64,000 nucleotides of DNA from a virus (Duplodnaviria > Caudoviricetes). Position 1 is the first letter of the stretch. Each line of letters begins with the position of its first letter. The stretch covers positions 1 through 64,000 of IMG/VR virus record IMGVR_UViG_3300028797_000159. One strand, 5' to 3'. Position numbers and translations under genes: made by a program. This document shows, in pieces, positions 2,731 to 56,121 of the stretch. A model generated the notes under the pieces. The model did no database searches. It was not told the DNA's origin and saw nothing but the letters and a program-made list of their open reading frames with translations.

Positions 2731-2934
2731 ATGTCAGCTAAAGCTAAGTATAATTATTATAATATTTGTCGTGAAATTCTCGATAACTTTGGTGCAACTA
2801 ATTGGATTGGTAAGAAAGATATTGATGACTATTTAGACATTTATTATAATGAAATGAGTGACGAAGATCGTGAATGGGTCTTTTATAAAATGGAAAAATT
2901 TGCTGACATAGATTATTACCGTTCAGTATTTTAA
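2731..2934 (+). CDS. hypothetical protein
   Basis: ORF directly downstream of cassette 2. Confidence 0.6.
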   Translation: MSAKAKYNYYNICREILDNFGATNWIGKKDIDDYLDIYYNEMSDEDREWVFYKMEKFADIDYYRSVF

Positions 2935-2989
2935 CAATAATACATTAATTGTATTAATATGTTCAACATATTGAATAAGGGTTTATAAA

Positions 2990-3235
2990 ATGAAGCAGGC
3001 TAAAAAGTATTACGAATGGTCAATCGTCTATATGACAAAGAGCGGTAAAACTGAGATTATTCTATGATCTGATAGAAAAGAAGCGAGTGCAGTTCAAAGG
3101 GTCTTTACATTATTAGAAGATAAATCGTTTGCAATTCATGTTCTTGACATTTTCGTATATGCTATGCCTAGTGGAAAGCCTTTCATAAAGATTAATACTA
3201 TTTCAAAAACAGTTGTTAGAAGCAAACTATGTTGA
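2990..3235 (+). pseudogene. small ORF interrupted by in-frame TGA at 3065
   Basis: Frame open on both sides of a single TGA (82 codons in total). Confidence 0.5.
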
Positions 3236-5717: not shown

Positions 5718-6065
5718 ATGAACGCAGTTGTTTACAATGCATGTTACGGTGGGTTTTCTCTTTCGCTCAAAGCGGTTGATTGGCTCGAGCAAAATGCTAA
5801 AGATGAGTCACTTGTAAATTACATTAAAGACACTAAACAAACTACTAATAAACTGTTTTGGGGTGATTTAGTTGGTGACCACTTACCGCGGCACCATAAA
5901 GATTTAGTAGCCGTTGTAGAGGCACTTGGTGATGACGCTGACGGCGACTGTTCAGAATTGTGTATTGCTCACATCTCAGGAAATCAATATCGTATTGAGG
6001 AATACGATGGCGCTGAAGAGGTTGTTACTCCGACTGATTCTGATTGGATCTTCATTGAAGATTAA
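5718..6065 (+). CDS. conserved phage protein (NxCYGGFxLS type)
   Basis: VVYNACYGGFSLS...IEEYDGAEEV. Confidence 0.65.
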   Translation: MNAVVYNACYGGFSLSLKAVDWLEQNAKDESLVNYIKDTKQTTNKLFWGDLVGDHLPRHHKDLVAVVEALGDDADGDCSELCIAHISGNQYRIEEYDGAEEVVTPTDSDWIFIED

Positions 6066-6101
6066 TAGTAATTAAATATAATATTATAAGGAATTAAAAT
6101 A

Positions 6102-6770
6102 ATGACAGATAAAAGTACTTCAAATGAAAATGATATTGTTGTTAATACTCAATGTCTAGAACAAGGAATTGAATACCATAATGAAAAACGTGCGATTTCT
6201 AAAGTAATGAATTCAATTGCAAAGCAATGTGCACGTGAAACACATATTAATAAAAAAGCTATAATGAAGGTAAAAGATTACCTTCATTATAGAGGTCGTG
6301 GATGGGGCGAAGATTGTCTTTCAAAATCTGATGAACAAGAAAAATATCCTGATCGTGTTTCACCAACATTTAGGAATCTTGTTGAAATTATTACTAATGC
6401 ATATATTACAGGTAAAGAAGATTTACTTGATGTTTATTTAAATGCTGTTAAAGATAAAGGTATTACAATCACTGTTGATAAGTCAATGTTTACATTGCCA
6501 AATATTGAACAAAAAGAAAAGGTCTCATCTGCAATAAATCAGTTAGATCCACTACAGTGCGATATTTGTGAGAAAAATGATTATATGAATGATGTCTTAG
6601 CAGAAGAAGCTGAAAACACAAATCTTTCACCAAAAAATAAATATAAACAAATTGTACAACTAGCTGCTGCAAGACAAGCTGGTAAAGATATTGATGATAA
6701 AGTCCAAGATGAATATTTGAAAATGGAATTATTTACAAAAGGTCTTGAAGCTGTAAATGATATTCAATAA
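6102..6770 (+). CDS. hypothetical protein
   Basis: 222-aa ORF with AAGGA RBS. Confidence 0.7.
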   Translation: MTDKSTSNENDIVVNTQCLEQGIEYHNEKRAISKVMNSIAKQCARETHINKKAIMKVKDYLHYRGRGWGEDCLSKSDEQEKYPDRVSPTFRNLVEIITNAYITGKEDLLDVYLNAVKDKGITITVDKSMFTLPNIEQKEKVSSAINQLDPLQCDICEKNDYMNDVLAEEAENTNLSPKNKYKQIVQLAAARQAGKDIDDKVQDEYLKMELFTKGLEAVNDIQ

Positions 6771-6892
6771 TATTGAATAATAAAAAATACAAGACATAAT
6801 TATTGATCTAATTATAAATTTACATGTCGTATTTATTATTTATAATAAATAATTTATTTTAATTTATTTAGTTTAATATAAGTATAAAATTT

Positions 6893-14553: not shown

Positions 14554-14790
14554 ATGACAGGTGATAGACTTATTACTCATAATTCCAGTGAGCTTTGGTC
14601 GCTGTTAAGTATCATTAAAAATGATTTTCCCAAACTAAAGAAAATGGGTTATTCATTTGCTTCTGTAGTAGAAGGTCATAATTGTGAATGCTTTGTATAT
14701 GGTTGGAAACAACGTTCACGCGCAGTGAATGAAGCCATTATGAATGATGGTCTTGCATTCGATCTTAAAACTAATAAAAAGTTATTCTAA
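14554..14790 (+). CDS. hypothetical protein
   Basis: ORF downstream of cassette 7. Confidence 0.6.
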   Translation: MTGDRLITHNSSELWSLLSIIKNDFPKLKKMGYSFASVVEGHNCECFVYGWKQRSRAVNEAIMNDGLAFDLKTNKKLF

Positions 14791-14806
14791 CGCTAAGGGG
14801 CTAAAT

Positions 14807-15838
14807 ATGAAACTCGCAAATATTCCATTCGTACAACAGATGATTGATTCTAAATATATTGTTGTTCGTAAACACCATGAGTTTGATTTATATATTTATA
14901 ACTATACTAAACAAGCTGCAGCCGAACATGTTTGGAATGAAGCAACTGAACAGTGCCGTGGAATTATTTGTGATAAAGAAATGAATGTTGTTGCACGTCC
15001 ATTTGCAAAATTCTATAACTATGAAGAGCTTTTACAGCAAGGTAAACAAATTCCTGATCTTCCATTTGAAGTATATGAGAAACTTGATGGTTCATTAGGT
15101 ATCTTGTATTTTTATAACGGAAAACCGTATATTGCAACTCGTGGGTCATTTGATTCTGCACAAGCAAAACATGCAACTGATATTTTATATTCAAAATATT
15201 CAGATAAATTAGATTTATTAGATAAATCAAAAACTTATTTGTTTGAAATTATTTATAAAGACCCAATGACTTCACTTGTTGTGAACTATGGCGATACTGA
15301 TGATATTTTCCTTATTGCTGTAATTGACACTGAAACTGGTTTTGAAGATGATATTTATGATTATAAACACATCTTTAAAACTACTACTAAATATGAATCA
15401 GTAAAAGACTATTTATCATTCCGTAAAGATCAGAGTGGATATAACCGAGAGGGCTTTGTAATTAAATTCTCAAATGGATTTCGTATGAAATTAAAATTTG
15501 AAGAATATTTTAAAGCACATTCAGCTCAATTCCATTTGAGCATTAAATCAGCATATAAAGCTATTTTGGAAAATAAAGTTGATAAAGTCCGTTCATATAT
15601 TGATGAACATTTATCAGAAGAATCAGCTTTATATTTTGATGAATTAGTTAAATCAGTGTATACTAAATACAAAGACATTGAAGATGAGTGTTTATCTAAA
15701 TTTCGTGATGATTTTAAATCACGACAAGAAGCTGCACAATATTTCTTACAATGTAAATATTCAAAAGTCTTATTCCAATTATATGATGGAAAAGATTATT
15801 CGAAATTTATTTGGAAATTAGTTGAAAAAGAATTATAA
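14807..15838 (+). CDS. T4 Rnl1-type RNA ligase
   Basis: IYNYT, CRGII, RPFAKFYN, EKLDGS (motif I), ATRGSF, EGFVIK, RMKLK. Confidence 0.9.
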   Translation: MKLANIPFVQQMIDSKYIVVRKHHEFDLYIYNYTKQAAAEHVWNEATEQCRGIICDKEMNVVARPFAKFYNYEELLQQGKQIPDLPFEVYEKLDGSLGILYFYNGKPYIATRGSFDSAQAKHATDILYSKYSDKLDLLDKSKTYLFEIIYKDPMTSLVVNYGDTDDIFLIAVIDTETGFEDDIYDYKHIFKTTTKYESVKDYLSFRKDQSGYNREGFVIKFSNGFRMKLKFEEYFKAHSAQFHLSIKSAYKAILENKVDKVRSYIDEHLSEESALYFDELVKSVYTKYKDIEDECLSKFRDDFKSRQEAAQYFLQCKYSKVLFQLYDGKDYSKFIWKLVEKEL

Positions 15839-18804: not shown

Positions 18805-18967
18805 ACATATAATAAGATTTATATATGTAACAGTGATCTTCAGGCATAAACGTTGATGATATAACGTTCGCCCAATATGGAAGTTCCGATAAATTCCATA
18901 ATATCGTATGATTCCGAAGTACAAGGAATCTTAATATTATGGTAACCTATAGTAATATAGGTAATTT

Positions 18968-19051
18968 GCTCGAATGGCGAAATTGGTAAACGCGACAGAC
19001 TCAAAATCTGTTATCTTCATTGATTTGAGAGTTCGATTCTCTCTTCGAGCA
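18968..19051 (+). tRNA. tRNA-Leu(CAA)
   Basis: gctcgaa/ttcgagc acceptor; acaga-ctCAAaa-tctgt; gttcga T-loop. Confidence 0.92.
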
Positions 19052-19055
19052 TTAT

Positions 19056-19126
19056 TCCGTGATAGTTTAATAGTAGAACAGTGGACTTTGACTCCGCCAG
19101 TATAGGTGCAATTCCTGTTCACGGAA
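19056..19126 (+). tRNA. tRNA-Gln(UUG)
   Basis: tccgtga/tcacgga; gtgga-ctTTGac-tccgc. Confidence 0.85.
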
Positions 19127-19195
19127 TTTCTTTGAAAAATAAATAAAAGAAAGTTAAATATAATGTACATCTTATGTATATTATAATTATAACAT

Positions 19196-19279
19196 GGGTG
19201 GTTTACCTAAGTGATCAACAGGTCGAGGCTGTAAACCTCGCGGCTAACGCCTTCGGTGGTTCGAATCCATCATCGCCCA
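19196..19279 (+). tRNA. tRNA-Tyr(GUA)
   Basis: cgagg-ctGTAaa-cctcg; long variable arm. Confidence 0.9.
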
Positions 19280-19283
19280 TTAT

Positions 19284-19365
19284 GCGAGAATGGTGAAATT
19301 GGTAAACACATAGCACTTAAAATGCTACGCTTTTTAGCTTGAGGGTTCGATTCCCTCTTCTCGCA
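19284..19365 (+). tRNA. tRNA-Leu(UAA)
   Basis: gcgagaa/ttctcgc; tagca-ctTAAaa-tgcta. Confidence 0.92.
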
Positions 19366-19370
19366 CTTAT

Positions 19371-19457
19371 GCTCTTGCAGCGAAATGGGCAAACGCGGCG
19401 GTTTTAATCACCGACTGGTGATAAACACCTTGAGGCTTCGAGAACTCTCCAAGAGCA
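19371..19457 (+). tRNA. atypical tRNA-Leu(UAA)-like / pseudo-tRNA
   Basis: Good acceptor, D and variable arms; loop tttaatc has U37; irregular T-arm. Confidence 0.6.
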
Positions 19458-19462
19458 TTTAT

Positions 19463-19773
19463 AGCGGAGTAGCTCAGCGGTCAGAGCAGTGGTCTTAGAC
19501 AATATGAGTGCCCAATAAGAAATTATTGGAGTAGAACGTCCCTAATTCAAGAAAACCCTAAACAGATAACGCTGTAGGCAATCTTGAGCTAAAACATATA
19601 ATTTAATTATATGTAAATGTGCAGAGACTATATAGGACGGTGCTAAATTCTTTTTAAGAACATGCATAAGAAATAGTCCAGACTACAACAACTATTAATT
19701 ATTATAGTTGGCTATGGAAACATAGAGTAGTAAGATAAACCATTGGTCGTGAGTTCAATTCTCACCTTCGCTA
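19463..19773 (+). tRNA. tRNA-Ile(UAU) split by a group I intron (exons 19463-19496 and 19735-19773)
   Basis: Joined exons give agcggag/cttcgct acceptor, gtggt-ctTATaa-accat anticodon arm and gtgag-ttcaatt-ctcac T-arm. Confidence 0.8.
19497..19734 (+). ncRNA. group I self-splicing intron (238 nt, no ORF)
   Basis: P aattcaagaaaac, Q ggcaatcttgagc, R gtgcagagactata, S aagaaatagtcc; terminal G. Confidence 0.9.
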
Positions 19774-19892
19774 TTTATAAATTTTAGTGGGACAGATGGT
19801 TGCCGCCATTTGATGAGAATCTCCAACTCATCTAACCACTAAGTTTTCTGATACGGCAATATCAGTTTAATAAAGTTAAAACGGAGGTAACT

Positions 19893-20735
19893 ATGTGTTG
19901 CTTTAATAACGAAGAATACGTAAAGCATGATTATGTATGCGAATTCTGTAATAAGAAATTCTTTACATATAAACATGCATTTGCTTACCATGTTAATAGA
20001 TGCAGTTGTAATCCTGAAAGTTCACATTACATAAAAGAACACAGCGTAACCTGCATAAAATGCGGTAATCCGTTTATAGTTAAATGCACTGATTCTCAGT
20101 TTGAAAAGGGCGCTTATCGTAAATATTGCTCTACTAAATGCAGTCAATCCAGAGTACTTACTGAAGAACAAAGAGCTAAAATTTCTAATTCGTTATATAC
20201 TCATTATGGTACTTCTCCACATGAAGTAGCTTATTGTGTCTGTTGTGGAAAATCATTGTCTAATAATAATGAATCTGGTTACTGTATAAACTGTATTCGC
20301 ACACATAACAAAGAATTTAGAGAGCAATACCCATTGTCAGATGAGGTAAAATCAAAGTTGTCTGTAGCTGGCAGAAAAGGTGTGGTTAATCAAGCAGAGA
20401 TAAGACGTTCTAAAAATGAAATTGCTTTTTGCAATTTGTGTGAACAGTACTTTTCCAATGTAGAACATAATGCGCCAATCTTTAATGGGTGGGACGCTGA
20501 CGTTATTATACACGATATTAAATATGCAGTGCTATGGAATGGTAAATGGCATTATGAAAAGATCACCGCCAATCATTCTGTAGAACAAGTACAGAACAGA
20601 GATCGTATTAAAATAAATGAGATCATTAAATATGGTTATACACCATACATTATAAAAGATGTAGGCAAGCACAAAGAATCATTTGTTAGAGAAGAGTTTG
20701 ATAAATTTATCAAGCTAGTTTCTACAAAAGATTAG
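19893..20735 (+). CDS. free-standing endonuclease: Zn fingers plus Vsr/DUF559-like PD-(D/E)xK domain
   Basis: CEFC, CIKC..YCSTKC, CVCC..CINC; WDADVII...VLWNGKWHY. Confidence 0.65.
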   Translation: MCCFNNEEYVKHDYVCEFCNKKFFTYKHAFAYHVNRCSCNPESSHYIKEHSVTCIKCGNPFIVKCTDSQFEKGAYRKYCSTKCSQSRVLTEEQRAKISNSLYTHYGTSPHEVAYCVCCGKSLSNNNESGYCINCIRTHNKEFREQYPLSDEVKSKLSVAGRKGVVNQAEIRRSKNEIAFCNLCEQYFSNVEHNAPIFNGWDADVIIHDIKYAVLWNGKWHYEKITANHSVEQVQNRDRIKINEIIKYGYTPYIIKDVGKHKESFVREEFDKFIKLVSTKD

Positions 20736-20765
20736 CGCAACCTGGGATCAGGACTCCGCTATTTT

Positions 20766-20853
20766 GGAGAAATGCGATAATGGTTATTCGAGCGGATTGC
20801 TAATCCGTCATACAATTTAATTTGTATTGCAGGTTCGAGTCCTGCTTTCTCCG
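20766..20853 (+). tRNA. tRNA-Ser(GCU)
   Basis: ggagaaa/tttctcc; gcgga-ttGCTaa-tccgt; long variable arm. Confidence 0.9.
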
Positions 20854-20924
20854 ATTTATTATTCGTAGGGTATAATTATTATGATTATAACTTACATTTC
20901 CTACTTATATAATTTGGAGGATTT

Positions 20925-54807: not shown

Positions 54808-56121
54808 ATGATGGAAATAAAAGGGAAATATTGTACTGCAAAAATATATGCTGGCACTATAGAAGATGGTGTAGTTGAACAGTTAAAAGAAATTGTAAAC
54901 TGTCCAGCTTTTAAAGATCAGCAGGTTCGATGTATGCCGGACGTTCATGTTGGTGCGGCAGGTCCATGCGGGTTAGTAGCAACTATTGGTGAATGGGTAA
55001 ACCCGCAACACGTTGGTGTAGACATTGGCTGTGAAGTTTCAATGGTTTTTCTTAATAAGAAAATACCTGAATTTATTTATAAAGAATTTGAGGCAAAAGT
55101 AAAAGAGCAAGTTAAATTTGGACAGACTATACACTCAGAATGTAAAGTTGACAAATTAGAATTTGTTAAATTTATTCAGGAAGGCTTTGATACGTATCGT
55201 GGCATTTGGCCTGATAAGTTATATGAACTTCCGAAAGTAGTAACTATTGAATACATTAACTCTGTTATTAGTAGAGTTGGCATAAATGAAGAACACTTTT
55301 GGCGTTCATTAGGAACTGTCGGTGGTGGAAATCACTATTGGGAATACGGTGAAGGTTCTGAAGGTAATACTTGTCATTACGCATATTCAGTTCATTGTGG
55401 ATCTCGTAACTTTGGTTTAAAAGTATGTCATTATTGGACTAAGTTGGCAGAGTGCGGTTTATCTAAAAGCGAAATTAAAAGCATTACTGATGCTTTAAAA
55501 GTAGAGTATTCAAATACTTACTCATCAATGGAAGGTTTTTCTGAAGCGTTAAAAGAAAAATTAGATATTGAAAAATCTAAAAAGATACCTGGCTATTTAA
55601 CAGGTGACTTACTTAGAGGATATCTTTGTGATATGTGTTTTGCTCAATTATATGCAAAATTTAATCATATTACTATAGAAAAAATTGTGAACGAGATATT
55701 AGGTCAATATGGTATACATCAAATAGACAGAATTTCATGTACGCATAATTTTATAGACTTAGAAGATCATACTCTGCGAAAGTCAGCTATTCGTTCATAT
55801 AAAGGAGAGCGACTTTTGCTTCCATTCAATATGAAAAGCGGAACTGCAGTGTGTGAAGGCAAGTCAAATACAGAATGGTTAAATGGTTGTGCTCATGGGG
55901 CTGGTAGAAAGATGTCACGTACTATGGCAAAGTCTAAAATTTCTTTAGAAGAGTTTAAACTTTCAATGGAAGGCGTTTATTCTACTACTGTTTGTGAGTC
56001 GACTATAGACGAGTCACCTATGGCTTATAAAGATACTGATGAGATTAAAAGACTAATATCTGAAACTGCAGATATTAAATTTATGATGTTACCTAAGATA
56101 AACATTAAAGCAACTGAATAA
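54808..56121 (+). CDS. rtcB: RtcB 3'-phosphate/cyclic-phosphate RNA ligase
   Basis: MPDVHVG, VGVDIGC, LGTVGGGNHYWE, VHCGSR, HNF, HGAGRKMSR, DESPMAYKD. Confidence 0.95.
   Translation: MMEIKGKYCTAKIYAGTIEDGVVEQLKEIVNCPAFKDQQVRCMPDVHVGAAGPCGLVATIGEWVNPQHVGVDIGCEVSMVFLNKKIPEFIYKEFEAKVKEQVKFGQTIHSECKVDKLEFVKFIQEGFDTYRGIWPDKLYELPKVVTIEYINSVISRVGINEEHFWRSLGTVGGGNHYWEYGEGSEGNTCHYAYSVHCGSRNFGLKVCHYWTKLAECGLSKSEIKSITDALKVEYSNTYSSMEGFSEALKEKLDIEKSKKIPGYLTGDLLRGYLCDMCFAQLYAKFNHITIEKIVNEILGQYGIHQIDRISCTHNFIDLEDHTLRKSAIRSYKGERLLLPFNMKSGTAVCEGKSNTEWLNGCAHGAGRKMSRTMAKSKISLEEFKLSMEGVYSTTVCESTIDESPMAYKDTDEIKRLISETADIKFMMLPKINIKATE

Follow-up and report, generated by a model that had tools for sequence, protein, structure and literature searches.

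A tRNA gene interrupted in its anticodon loop by a bacterial-type group I intron is located at 19463–19773 of the first 64 kb (64 000 nt; the window, whose positions serve as coordinates) of the 72.5-kb IMG/VR virus record IMGVR_UViG_3300028797_000159. Both the isoacceptor and the type of genome are ones in which such introns are little documented. The locus very probably represents a functional tRNA-Ile(UAU) gene of a large, AT-rich phage, in which a compact group I ribozyme that contains no open reading frame (ORF) separates U34 from A35; the simplest reading of this intron is a mobile, selfish member of the '3Ug' lineage of tRNA-Leu(UAA) introns. The phage has a G+C content of ~30 %. The record is a fragment, estimated by CheckV to be 34 % complete; at 72.5 kb, this suggests that the phage is probably of jumbo size.

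Exons, splice junction and predicted spliced product

When introns are allowed, ARAGORN predicts a tRNA-Ile(tat) with a 238-nt intron, both in the local region and in the whole record. The reported junction, 'gtctt-Intron-ataaa', places the intron at 19497–19734, inserted after U34. The parts of the gene are as follows.

19463–19496, plus strand: 5′ exon, comprising the acceptor 5′ strand, D arm, anticodon stem 5′ strand GUGGU and loop nucleotides C32 U33 U34 (ARAGORN -i; joined exons ~90 % identical to the tRNA-Ile(tat) of viral contig L070)
19497–19734, plus strand: group I intron, 238 nt, without an ORF (RF00028 49.1 bits, E 4.9e-13; minimum free energy (MFE) fold z −3.79; covariation)
19735–19773, plus strand: 3′ exon, comprising A35 U36 A37 A38, stem strand ACCAU, variable loop, T arm, acceptor 3′ strand and discriminator A73 at 19773 (ARAGORN -i; BLAST 90 % identity to the L070 tRNA); CCA is not encoded

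Whether the exons are joined or left unspliced, ARAGORN draws a perfect cloverleaf with a 7-nt anticodon loop, CU-UAU-AA, on the 5-bp stem GUGGU/ACCAU; this is the loop that an earlier note on this DNA, made from the sequence alone, had expected after splicing. A single placement of the intron, U19496↓A19497...G19734↓A19735 (arrows mark exon–intron boundaries), combines a U at −1, a G at omega and a 7-nt loop.

The empty site is represented by viral contig L070 (40 % G+C), which carries an uninterrupted tRNA-Ile(tat) (RF00005, 71.3 bits). Its anticodon stem-loop, GUGGU-CUUAUAA-ACCAU, is identical to that of the joined exons, and elsewhere the T stem and pair 5–68 have changed in a compensatory way. 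Two further viral contigs, L105 and L151, contain different tRNA-Ile(UAU) genes that are split at the same point, CUU↓AUAA, by related introns of 204–205 nt; in a focused search the L105 intron scores 68.6 bits against RF00028, above the Rfam cut-off. Contig L105 also carries a full-length transfer-messenger RNA gene at 2862–3216 (RF00023, 71.7 bits). The exact allele of the window is so far unique to its record, as the pattern AGTGGTCTTA-N220-250-GATAAACCATTG retrieved from the metagenome collection only one chance match that is not a tRNA. Insertion after U34 and a spliced anticodon of UAU, as the earlier note had proposed, are upheld by the ARAGORN boundaries, the intron-less L070 homologue, the splits in L105 and L151 and the covariation of the P10 guide described below.

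A junction located elsewhere (yielding, for example, GAU or UAA), or removal of the intron by proteins (an endonuclease together with RtcB) rather than by self-splicing, is extremely improbable. The DNA gap relative to the intron-less homologue could be placed one base rightward (CTTA↓...↓TAA), and RtcB is encoded in the window. However, only the placement given above has both a U at −1 and a G at omega, the class I tRNA body rules out Leu, and the same U-1/omega-G rule yields normal tRNAs in seven other split genes. The GAU alternative that the earlier note had considered (CU↓GAUAA) requires an intron ending in A. Protein splicing is unnecessary given the complete ribozyme core.

The intron as a group I ribozyme

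At default settings, neither ARAGORN nor Rfam calls a tRNA or RF00028 at 19463–19773. The RF00028 search proposed earlier, run as a focused scan, gave a full-length match (1–253) at 19486–19698 with 49.1 bits (E 1.4e-11 locally and 4.9e-13 in the 72.5-kb record), the gathering score being 50 bits. The filters applied in multi-kb cmscan searches, together with the gathering threshold, lose true tRNA group I introns, whereas regions of ~400 nt searched alone score 49–69 bits. A 33.7-kb Rfam scan likewise returned no RF00028 match for L105, L151, L079, L077 or L001; for L105 this is a filter effect, since the focused search gives 68.6 bits. Negative RF00028 results on long sequences are therefore unreliable for tRNA introns.

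The structure was assessed on two alignments: A1, with the window intron, the intron of phage Lak-B1 and six Bacteroidales introns (eight sequences), and A2, with the window intron and tRNA introns of related jumbo-phage contigs. The elements of the intron are listed below.

19494–19508, plus strand: P1, exon C19494-U19495-U19496 with guide G19506-A19507-G19508, U19496·G19506 wobble at the 5′ splice site (read from the sequence)
19497–19505, plus strand: L1 loop, which holds the P10 guide (read from the sequence)
19503–19505, plus strand: P10 guide UAU, complementary to 3′-exon AUA at 19735–19737 (guide/3′-exon covariation)
19512–19529, plus strand: P2 hairpin, 7 bp (19512–18/19523–29), GAAA tetraloop at 19519–19522 (7/7 pairs doubly changed and 100 % paired on A1; 85.7 % paired on A2)
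19537–19541, plus strand: P3 5′ strand CGUCC, partner GGACG at 19635–19639 (4/5 pairs compensatory, 100 % paired)
19546–19613, plus strand: P4–P6 domain, with P4 19546–19551/19583–19588, P5 19557–19565/19572–19578 and P6 19595–19603/19605–19613 (P4 94 % paired; MFE fold)
19626–19630, plus strand: P7 5′ strand GACUA, partner UAGUC at 19674–19678, guanosine-binding helix, pseudoknot with P3 (invariant and 100 % paired in eight sequences; RF00028 consensus AGACUA...AUAGUC)
19635–19639, plus strand: P3 3′ strand GGACG (structure alignment A1)
19641–19666, plus strand: P8 hairpin, 19641–19643/19664–19666 and 19648–19651/19657–19660 (100 % and 84 % paired, compensatory changes)
19667–19678, plus strand: J8/7 UAAGAAA and P7 3′ strand UAGUC (agrees with the RF00028 consensus UgAAGAUAUAGUC)
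19683–19734, plus strand: P9 three-way junction, with P9 19683–19686/19727–19730, P9a 19689–19695/19704–19710 and P9b 19712–19716/19721–19725, GAAA loop (MFE fold; P9 invariant, 100 % paired)

All pairs of the manual structure model are Watson–Crick or G·U in the window copy. An unconstrained MFE fold recovers P2, P3, P4, P5, P6, P8, P9, P9a and P9b, and none of 200 shuffles folds as well (z −3.79). On A1, 80.7 % pairing is seen for the manual structure with its P3/P7 pseudoknot, compared with 32–41 % when partners are slid, and 26 pairs are changed on both sides, a figure matched by 0 of 500 shuffles. Covariation is seen in P2, P3, P4, P5 and P8, with P7 and P9 invariant. For P4 it comes from A2 (94 % paired, two compensatory pairs, G-C/A-U exchanges); on A1 no convincing P4 helix was found in the Bacteroidales and Lak introns (43.8 % paired), and either their P4–P6 domain is divergent or it is misaligned, the P4 of the window itself being canonical. 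An exact pattern built from the P7–P3′ core of the window had no match in viral contigs. The RF00028 match, the fold and the covariation together bear out the group I core elements recognized earlier by eye.

At the splice sites the outcome is more mixed. The wobble U19496·G19506, with U19495-A19507 and C19494-G19508, agrees with the P1 first proposed, whereas the extent given to it, ggtctt with gagtgcc, is probably too long. An extended P1, GGUCUU/GAGUGCC with a bulged U, was set aside, and the exon part of P1 is most safely taken as CUU/GAG, because the UGC that follows GAG is conserved throughout the lineage irrespective of the exon sequence. In all members of the lineage the 5′ exon ends in YUU opposite an invariant GAG. 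An exon part of 3 bp is usual in tRNA introns, for example CAU/GUG in Azoarcus. At the other end, the intron closes with the 3′ tail UAAG, the last nucleotide being omega-G 19734 as originally noted, and the complementarity of 19735–19737 to 19503–19505 agrees with the AUA/UAU P10 that had been put forward.

Several traits would fit subgroup IC3, of which the intron is a candidate member, namely the length of 238 nt, a simple P5, GAAA loops on P2 and P9b and the anticodon-loop site. Introns homologous to that of the window are assigned to IC3 in a curated database (Williams 2020, bioRxiv 10.1101/2020.01.27.920355).

A score just below the curated RF00028 cut-off and the lack of an identical allele elsewhere in the metagenome collection could also be expected of a decayed intron, in which case the gene would be a pseudogene and no tRNA-Ile(UAU) would be made. 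This is highly unlikely, as all helices are fully paired, J8/7, P7 and both GAAA tetraloops are intact, the P10 guide fits this particular exon and the exons keep a perfect cloverleaf.

Lineage and proposed retuning of the P10 guide

BLAST against phage genomes matched the window intron only to Lak megaphages and to the cores of Staphylococcus phage introns. A search with the P7–J8/7 motif retrieved tRNA-Leu(UAA) genes of Bacteroidales metagenome-assembled genomes (MAGs), split as CUU↓AAAA. Their introns and that of the window have in common the internal guide sequence module, J2/3, P7–P9 and the 3′ tail AGAGUAGUAxG. In these MAGs (L073–L082, e.g. OZ007033.1; Rikenellaceae, Cryptobacteroides and others) the introns are 244–276 nt long; in longer versions, of ~750 nt, the P1 loop (L1) holds an ORF for an HNH endonuclease.

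The P1′-P2-J2/3 module, GAGUGC-P2(GAAA)-RAGUAGAAC, is present in at least 119 viral contigs of IMG/VR. Among the 80 matches listed (L085–L164), 58 are tRNA-Leu(UAA) genes split as CTT↓AAAA, four are Thr(UGU) and two are Ile(UAU) (L105 and L151), with apparent single genes for Lys(UUU) and Gln(UUG). Leu genes of the same layout number at least 58 in viruses and nine in Bacteroidales. The P10 guide follows the 3′ exon: ATA is matched by TAT in 3/3 Ile genes, AAA by TTT in 50/69 Leu genes, GTA by TAC in 2/2 Thr genes and TTA by TAG in 3/3 Lys genes. Such covariation has no easy explanation unless selection maintains splicing of the introns at these positions.

By these sequence features the window intron is a member of the tRNA-Leu(UAA) '3Ug' lineage (nomenclature of Williams). 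The Leu.3Ug and Thr.3Ug seed sequences of that author have the same layout, CUU...GAG-UGC-P2(GAAA) (bioRxiv 10.1101/2020.01.27.920355). In common with tRNA-Leu(UAA) 3Ug introns, that of the window is compact and ORF-less, lies between U34 and A35, and has CUU/GAG followed by the conserved UGC and a GAAA-closed P2. Unlike them, it resides in a class I tRNA-Ile(UAU) rather than a class II tRNA-Leu, has a P10 guide of UAU instead of UUU and is found in a phage genome. Its P4–P6 domain resembles that of tRNA(CAU) introns of related jumbo phages more than that of Bacteroidales or Lak Leu-type introns, and the segments AAUUCAAGAAAACC...GGCAAUCUUGAGC are common to the window and L041.

The intron may have moved from a tRNA-Leu(UAA) to a tRNA-Ile(UAU) gene, since the loop CUU↓AUAA is one base away from the Leu loop CUU↓AAAA; upon colonization, the P10 guide would have adapted from UUU to UAU. 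A recent transfer from Bacteroidales was considered in particular and has been softened, given an identity of only 59–61 % and relatives that come from a motif-limited search.

Predicted AUA decoding and charging

The pre-tRNA would be transcribed with the surrounding tRNA cluster, and free guanosine would attack after U19496. The freed 3′-OH of U34 would then attack after G19734, joining the exons into a 73-nt tRNA with the loop CUUAUAA, which host enzymes would trim and provide with CCA. Charged with isoleucine, the spliced tRNA would read AUA.

The phage would have use for such a tRNA. On the phage side of the usage comparison suggested earlier, AUA makes up 313 of 1247 Ile codons (25 %) in 85 plus-strand ORFs, or 20.5 per 1000 codons, and is as frequent as AUG. 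Within the 72.5-kb record, itself a fragment, ARAGORN finds no other tRNA-Ile gene, and no TilS-family gene is present. Decoding of AUA without TilS, as had been suggested, is therefore plausible on sequence grounds. The description of tRNA-Ile(UAU) as rare holds for bacteria, in which UAU anticodons are indeed rare (PMC3575796, PMC8007984), and fails for phages: an anticodon stem-loop identical to this one is present in 22 viral contigs, and five related jumbo-phage loci have a tRNA-Ile(UAU) without an intron.

Among 1164 phage tRNAs, the nearest tRNA bodies are those of Ile(UAU), Thr, Met and Ile(GAU). The Escherichia coli isoleucine identity set reportedly defined by Nureki in 1994 consists of A73, A37, A38, U12-A23, C4-G69 and C29-G41. 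The spliced tRNA has A73, A37, A38 and U12-A23; the set is host-specific. As identity rules depend on the host, charging of the spliced tRNA with isoleucine is likely, judged from its sequence.

Several observations nevertheless weigh against a functional, self-spliced tRNA-Ile(UAU) carrying a retargeted Leu-lineage intron. The spliced tRNA has G4-C69 and G29-C41 in place of the C4-G69 and C29-G41 of the E. coli set. The IleRS (isoleucyl-tRNA synthetase) of E. coli charges the UAU anticodon poorly (PMC3575796), so that isoleucine charging is not assured. The RF00028 score lies 0.9 bit below the gathering score, so that the family is unlisted at the default threshold, and the exon part of P1 is just 3 bp. 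Guanosine-dependent self-splicing is itself predicted from the sequence. Overall identity to the aligned Leu-lineage introns is only ~59–61 %, which leaves it a matter of inference when the intron moved and that it did so from Leu to Ile. Lastly, the record is a 34 %-complete fragment.

The tRNA cluster and RNA-repair genes

The tRNA cluster spans 18967–20854. Its five tRNAs reported by default ARAGORN and Rfam (Leu-CAA, Gln-UUG, Tyr-GUA, Leu-UAA and Ser-GCU) are all uninterrupted, and four of them lie upstream of the split gene.

18967–19366, plus strand: uninterrupted tRNAs Leu-CAA, Gln-UUG, Tyr-GUA and Leu-UAA, the last at 19284–19366 (ARAGORN, RF00005)

The phage's own tRNA-Leu(UAA), which has no intron, thus sits 97 nt 5′ of the split tRNA-Ile. 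Between the two, at 19371–19457, is a tRNA-like element, its 7-bp acceptor stem perfectly paired, which ARAGORN reports as tRNA-Leu(taa) only with a relaxed threshold (-ps80) and which is unscored by Rfam (fold z −2.3). Possibly this is a second tRNA-Leu(UAA), either degenerate or of an unusual kind.

The window also encodes an Rnl1-like RNA ligase, RtcB, a DNA ligase and amidoligases. The Rnl1-like ligase (14744–15838) and RtcB (54808–56121) form an RNA-repair toolkit of the kind that counters host anticodon nucleases. The Rnl1-like protein, used as bait against viral contigs, found no relatives.

These repair enzymes make attack on tRNAs a plausible pressure, and together with the recurrence of a split tRNA-Ile(UAU) in three contigs they could suggest that the intron benefits the phage, either by timing or GTP-sensing control of the AUA decoder or by shielding the anticodon loop of gene or precursor from host defences such as anticodon nucleases. 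Such a benefit is unlikely. Nothing in the sequence points to regulation, and once mature, the tRNA would have no more protection than others. Introns of this lineage occur in many different tRNAs of bacteria and phages, as a mobile element would; there are close alleles without the intron, and the other five tRNAs of the cluster are uninterrupted. A regulatory function is not needed to explain the intron, which as an ordinary mobile member of the Leu(UAA) lineage has the simpler reading. The earlier idea of splicing as a control point, or as a way of hiding the anticodon, accordingly finds no support: the intron looks like an ordinary mobile one retargeted to a near-identical loop.

A neighbouring gene for a probable Vsr-like nuclease

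A free-standing gene lies 119 nt downstream of the split tRNA.

19893–20735, plus strand: nuclease-like protein of 280 aa, with N-terminal zinc fingers and NUMOD3 and a C-terminal Vsr-like domain

In an AlphaFold (AF2) model (pLDDT 81), residues 171–280 resemble 3hrl (Z 10.2; root-mean-square deviation 2.3 over 90 residues), Vsr (1cw0; Z 9.8) and the homing endonuclease I-Bth0305I (3r3p; Z 9.5 over 97 residues). Foldseek gives this domain a probability of 0.98–0.99 but an E of only 0.04, and identity to the solved relatives is 12–19 %. Invariant in the family alignment are E176, D201, D203, N216, K218 and H220, and Pfam NUMOD3 is detected in 6 of 19 members. On its modelled fold, the protein is probably a homing endonuclease of the free-standing type, separate from the ribozyme, and it may assist the mobility of the intron.

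Homologues are encoded in at least 34 viral contigs of large size, in every case inside a tRNA array. The family (~250–320 aa; L004–L036), which belongs to no Pfam or PHROG family, is, as modelled, probably an undescribed family of free-standing homing endonucleases with zinc fingers, NUMOD3 and a Vsr-like domain. The homologue is ≤~120 nt from a tRNA(CAU) in 13 of the 20 loci examined and directly 3′ of a split tRNA in L013 (34 nt), L021 (27 nt) and the window, adjacency counts that are biased because the loci were found through the 280-aa protein. In L009 an uninterrupted tRNA-Ile(UAU) overlaps the 3′ end of the homologue gene.

Further split tRNAs in these contigs, on which ARAGORN and RF00028 agree, are Asn(GUU) (96 bits) and Thr(UGU) (67 bits), and two split CAU tRNAs with a CAU↓/GUG arrangement like that of Azoarcus score 80.8 and 73.6 bits (L040 and L041); joined by the U-1/omega-G rule, each of these genes yields a normal tRNA. 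The L003 homologue (5992–6885) has TAG codons at two in-frame positions, a sign that the phage may be TAG-recoded. Two adjacent tRNAs in L042 (482–553 and 563–634; Rfam tRNA 48.8 and 52.2 bits) have a four-base anticodon (cacc) to which ARAGORN assigns no amino acid.

These observations raise the possibility of collaborative homing, in which the nuclease of 19893–20735 would cut intron-less tRNA alleles of co-infecting relatives, repair would copy the intron and perhaps the nuclease gene, and the intron would protect its own genome by disrupting the target. Although compatible with self-splicing, this scenario is a tentative one and falls short of being probable. The domain fold, the zinc fingers with NUMOD3 and the location of homologues beside split tRNAs and tRNA(CAU) genes speak for it, and the HNH ORF in L1 of some Bacteroidales relatives indicates that the lineage does associate with nucleases. 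However, most homologues adjoin uninterrupted tRNA genes, and none is found within 6.5 kb (L105) and 14 kb (L151) of the other split tRNA-Ile(UAU) genes. The aligned motif, D-x-D ... N-G-K, is not the textbook (D/E)xK, and a role in tRNA metabolism is a conceivable alternative to DNA cleavage.

The C-terminal domain matches in fold the catalytic domain of I-Bth0305I; unlike I-Bth0305I and the Vsr-like (EDxHD) homing endonucleases, the protein of the window has N-terminal zinc fingers. In cyanophage psbA, a free-standing endonuclease and an ORF-less intron cooperate in 'collaborative homing'. The window has a similar layout, with an ORF-less intron beside a nuclease gene located outside it.

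Comparison with known tRNA introns and AUA-reading tRNAs

The small bacterial-type intron of Azoarcus also lies in an AUA-reading tRNA and also has a 3-bp exon part of P1. It has tetraloops on P2 and P9. Unlike the window intron, it is inserted after position 36 (CAU↓) with the guide GUG, and its tRNA requires lysidine at C34 to read AUA; in the window the anticodon is UAU and the intron follows position 34. In Mycoplasma mobile and a few other bacteria, a tRNA-Ile2 with the anticodon UAU (unmodified or U34-type) reads AUA, as expected for the window, in place of lysidine-CAU (Taniguchi et al. 2013, PMC3575796). Those genes, in contrast to that of the window, are uninterrupted and accompanied by a co-adapted IleRS (Arg for Trp at the wobble-reading site) and ribosome (PMC3575796).

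A 2014 review of bacterial group I introns placed all phage introns then known in protein genes (PMC3984707). Bacterial classes of split tRNAs, of which the earlier note listed four, have since been raised from four to 21, so that this list is outdated; Ile(UAU) is absent from the seed alignment of that study (Williams 2020, bioRxiv 10.1101/2020.01.27.920355). Lak megaphage tRNA introns, likewise missing from the list, were reported in 2018/19 as 'enigmatic' and, to the authors' knowledge, the first in phage tRNAs (Devoto et al., 10.1101/356790). No publication treating group I introns of phage tRNA genes as such came up in the literature searches.

As in the window, the Lak introns interrupt phage tRNA genes in the anticodon region; they were mapped with eukaryotic tRNAscan settings and left unclassified (10.1101/356790). 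The Lak-B1 intron (L001) matches that of the window by BLAST at 74 % over 153 nt, with common P2, P3, P7, P8 and P9 and compensatory changes, although it received no RF00028 score in a 955-nt search. The two differ in that the Lak-B1 gene yields an anticodon of CUA by the U-1/omega-G rule and in that the P4–P6 region is different. At L001 263–580 (Lak-B1, MK250020.1 ~412033–412350; identical in L048–L050), the tRNA is split by a 245-nt intron homologous to that of the window; the joined loop CUCU↓AAA, with the guide GGAG, has the anticodon CUA, and with a Gln-like U1-A72 acceptor this would be the amber suppressor expected for a TAG-recoded phage. On this sequence evidence, one of the tRNA introns termed 'enigmatic' in Lak phages may be accounted for by a CUA suppressor tRNA.

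Implications

In other respects the locus is biologically unremarkable, an AT-rich phage providing an AUA decoder of its own whose gene houses an apparently selfish intron. Judged by the sequences retrieved, group I introns seem to be a common feature of phage tRNA genes. With a single motif, intron-split tRNA genes are found in at least 119 viral contigs, and the statement that phage introns all reside in protein genes (PMC3984707) is outdated. Because standard tRNA finders and the default Rfam threshold miss the gene, phage tRNA repertoires are undercounted, and the undercount extends to the codon-supply and stop-codon-recoding arguments built on them. The Ile, Leu, Thr and Lys genes with their matching 3-nt guides also constitute a natural specificity series for changes of exon specificity in a ribozyme.

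A broader, speculative possibility is that introns of one lineage hop among large-phage tRNA genes (Leu-UAA, Ile-UAU, Thr-UGU, Lys-UUU and the Lak CUA suppressor) by retuning a 3-nt P10 guide, driven in some jumbo phages by an unrecognized family of free-standing zinc-finger Vsr-like homing endonucleases beside tRNA(CAU) and tRNA-Ile(UAU) genes. If so, anticodon loops would be a major overlooked arena of phage intron and endonuclease traffic, and the 'enigmatic' tRNA introns of Lak phages would be explained.

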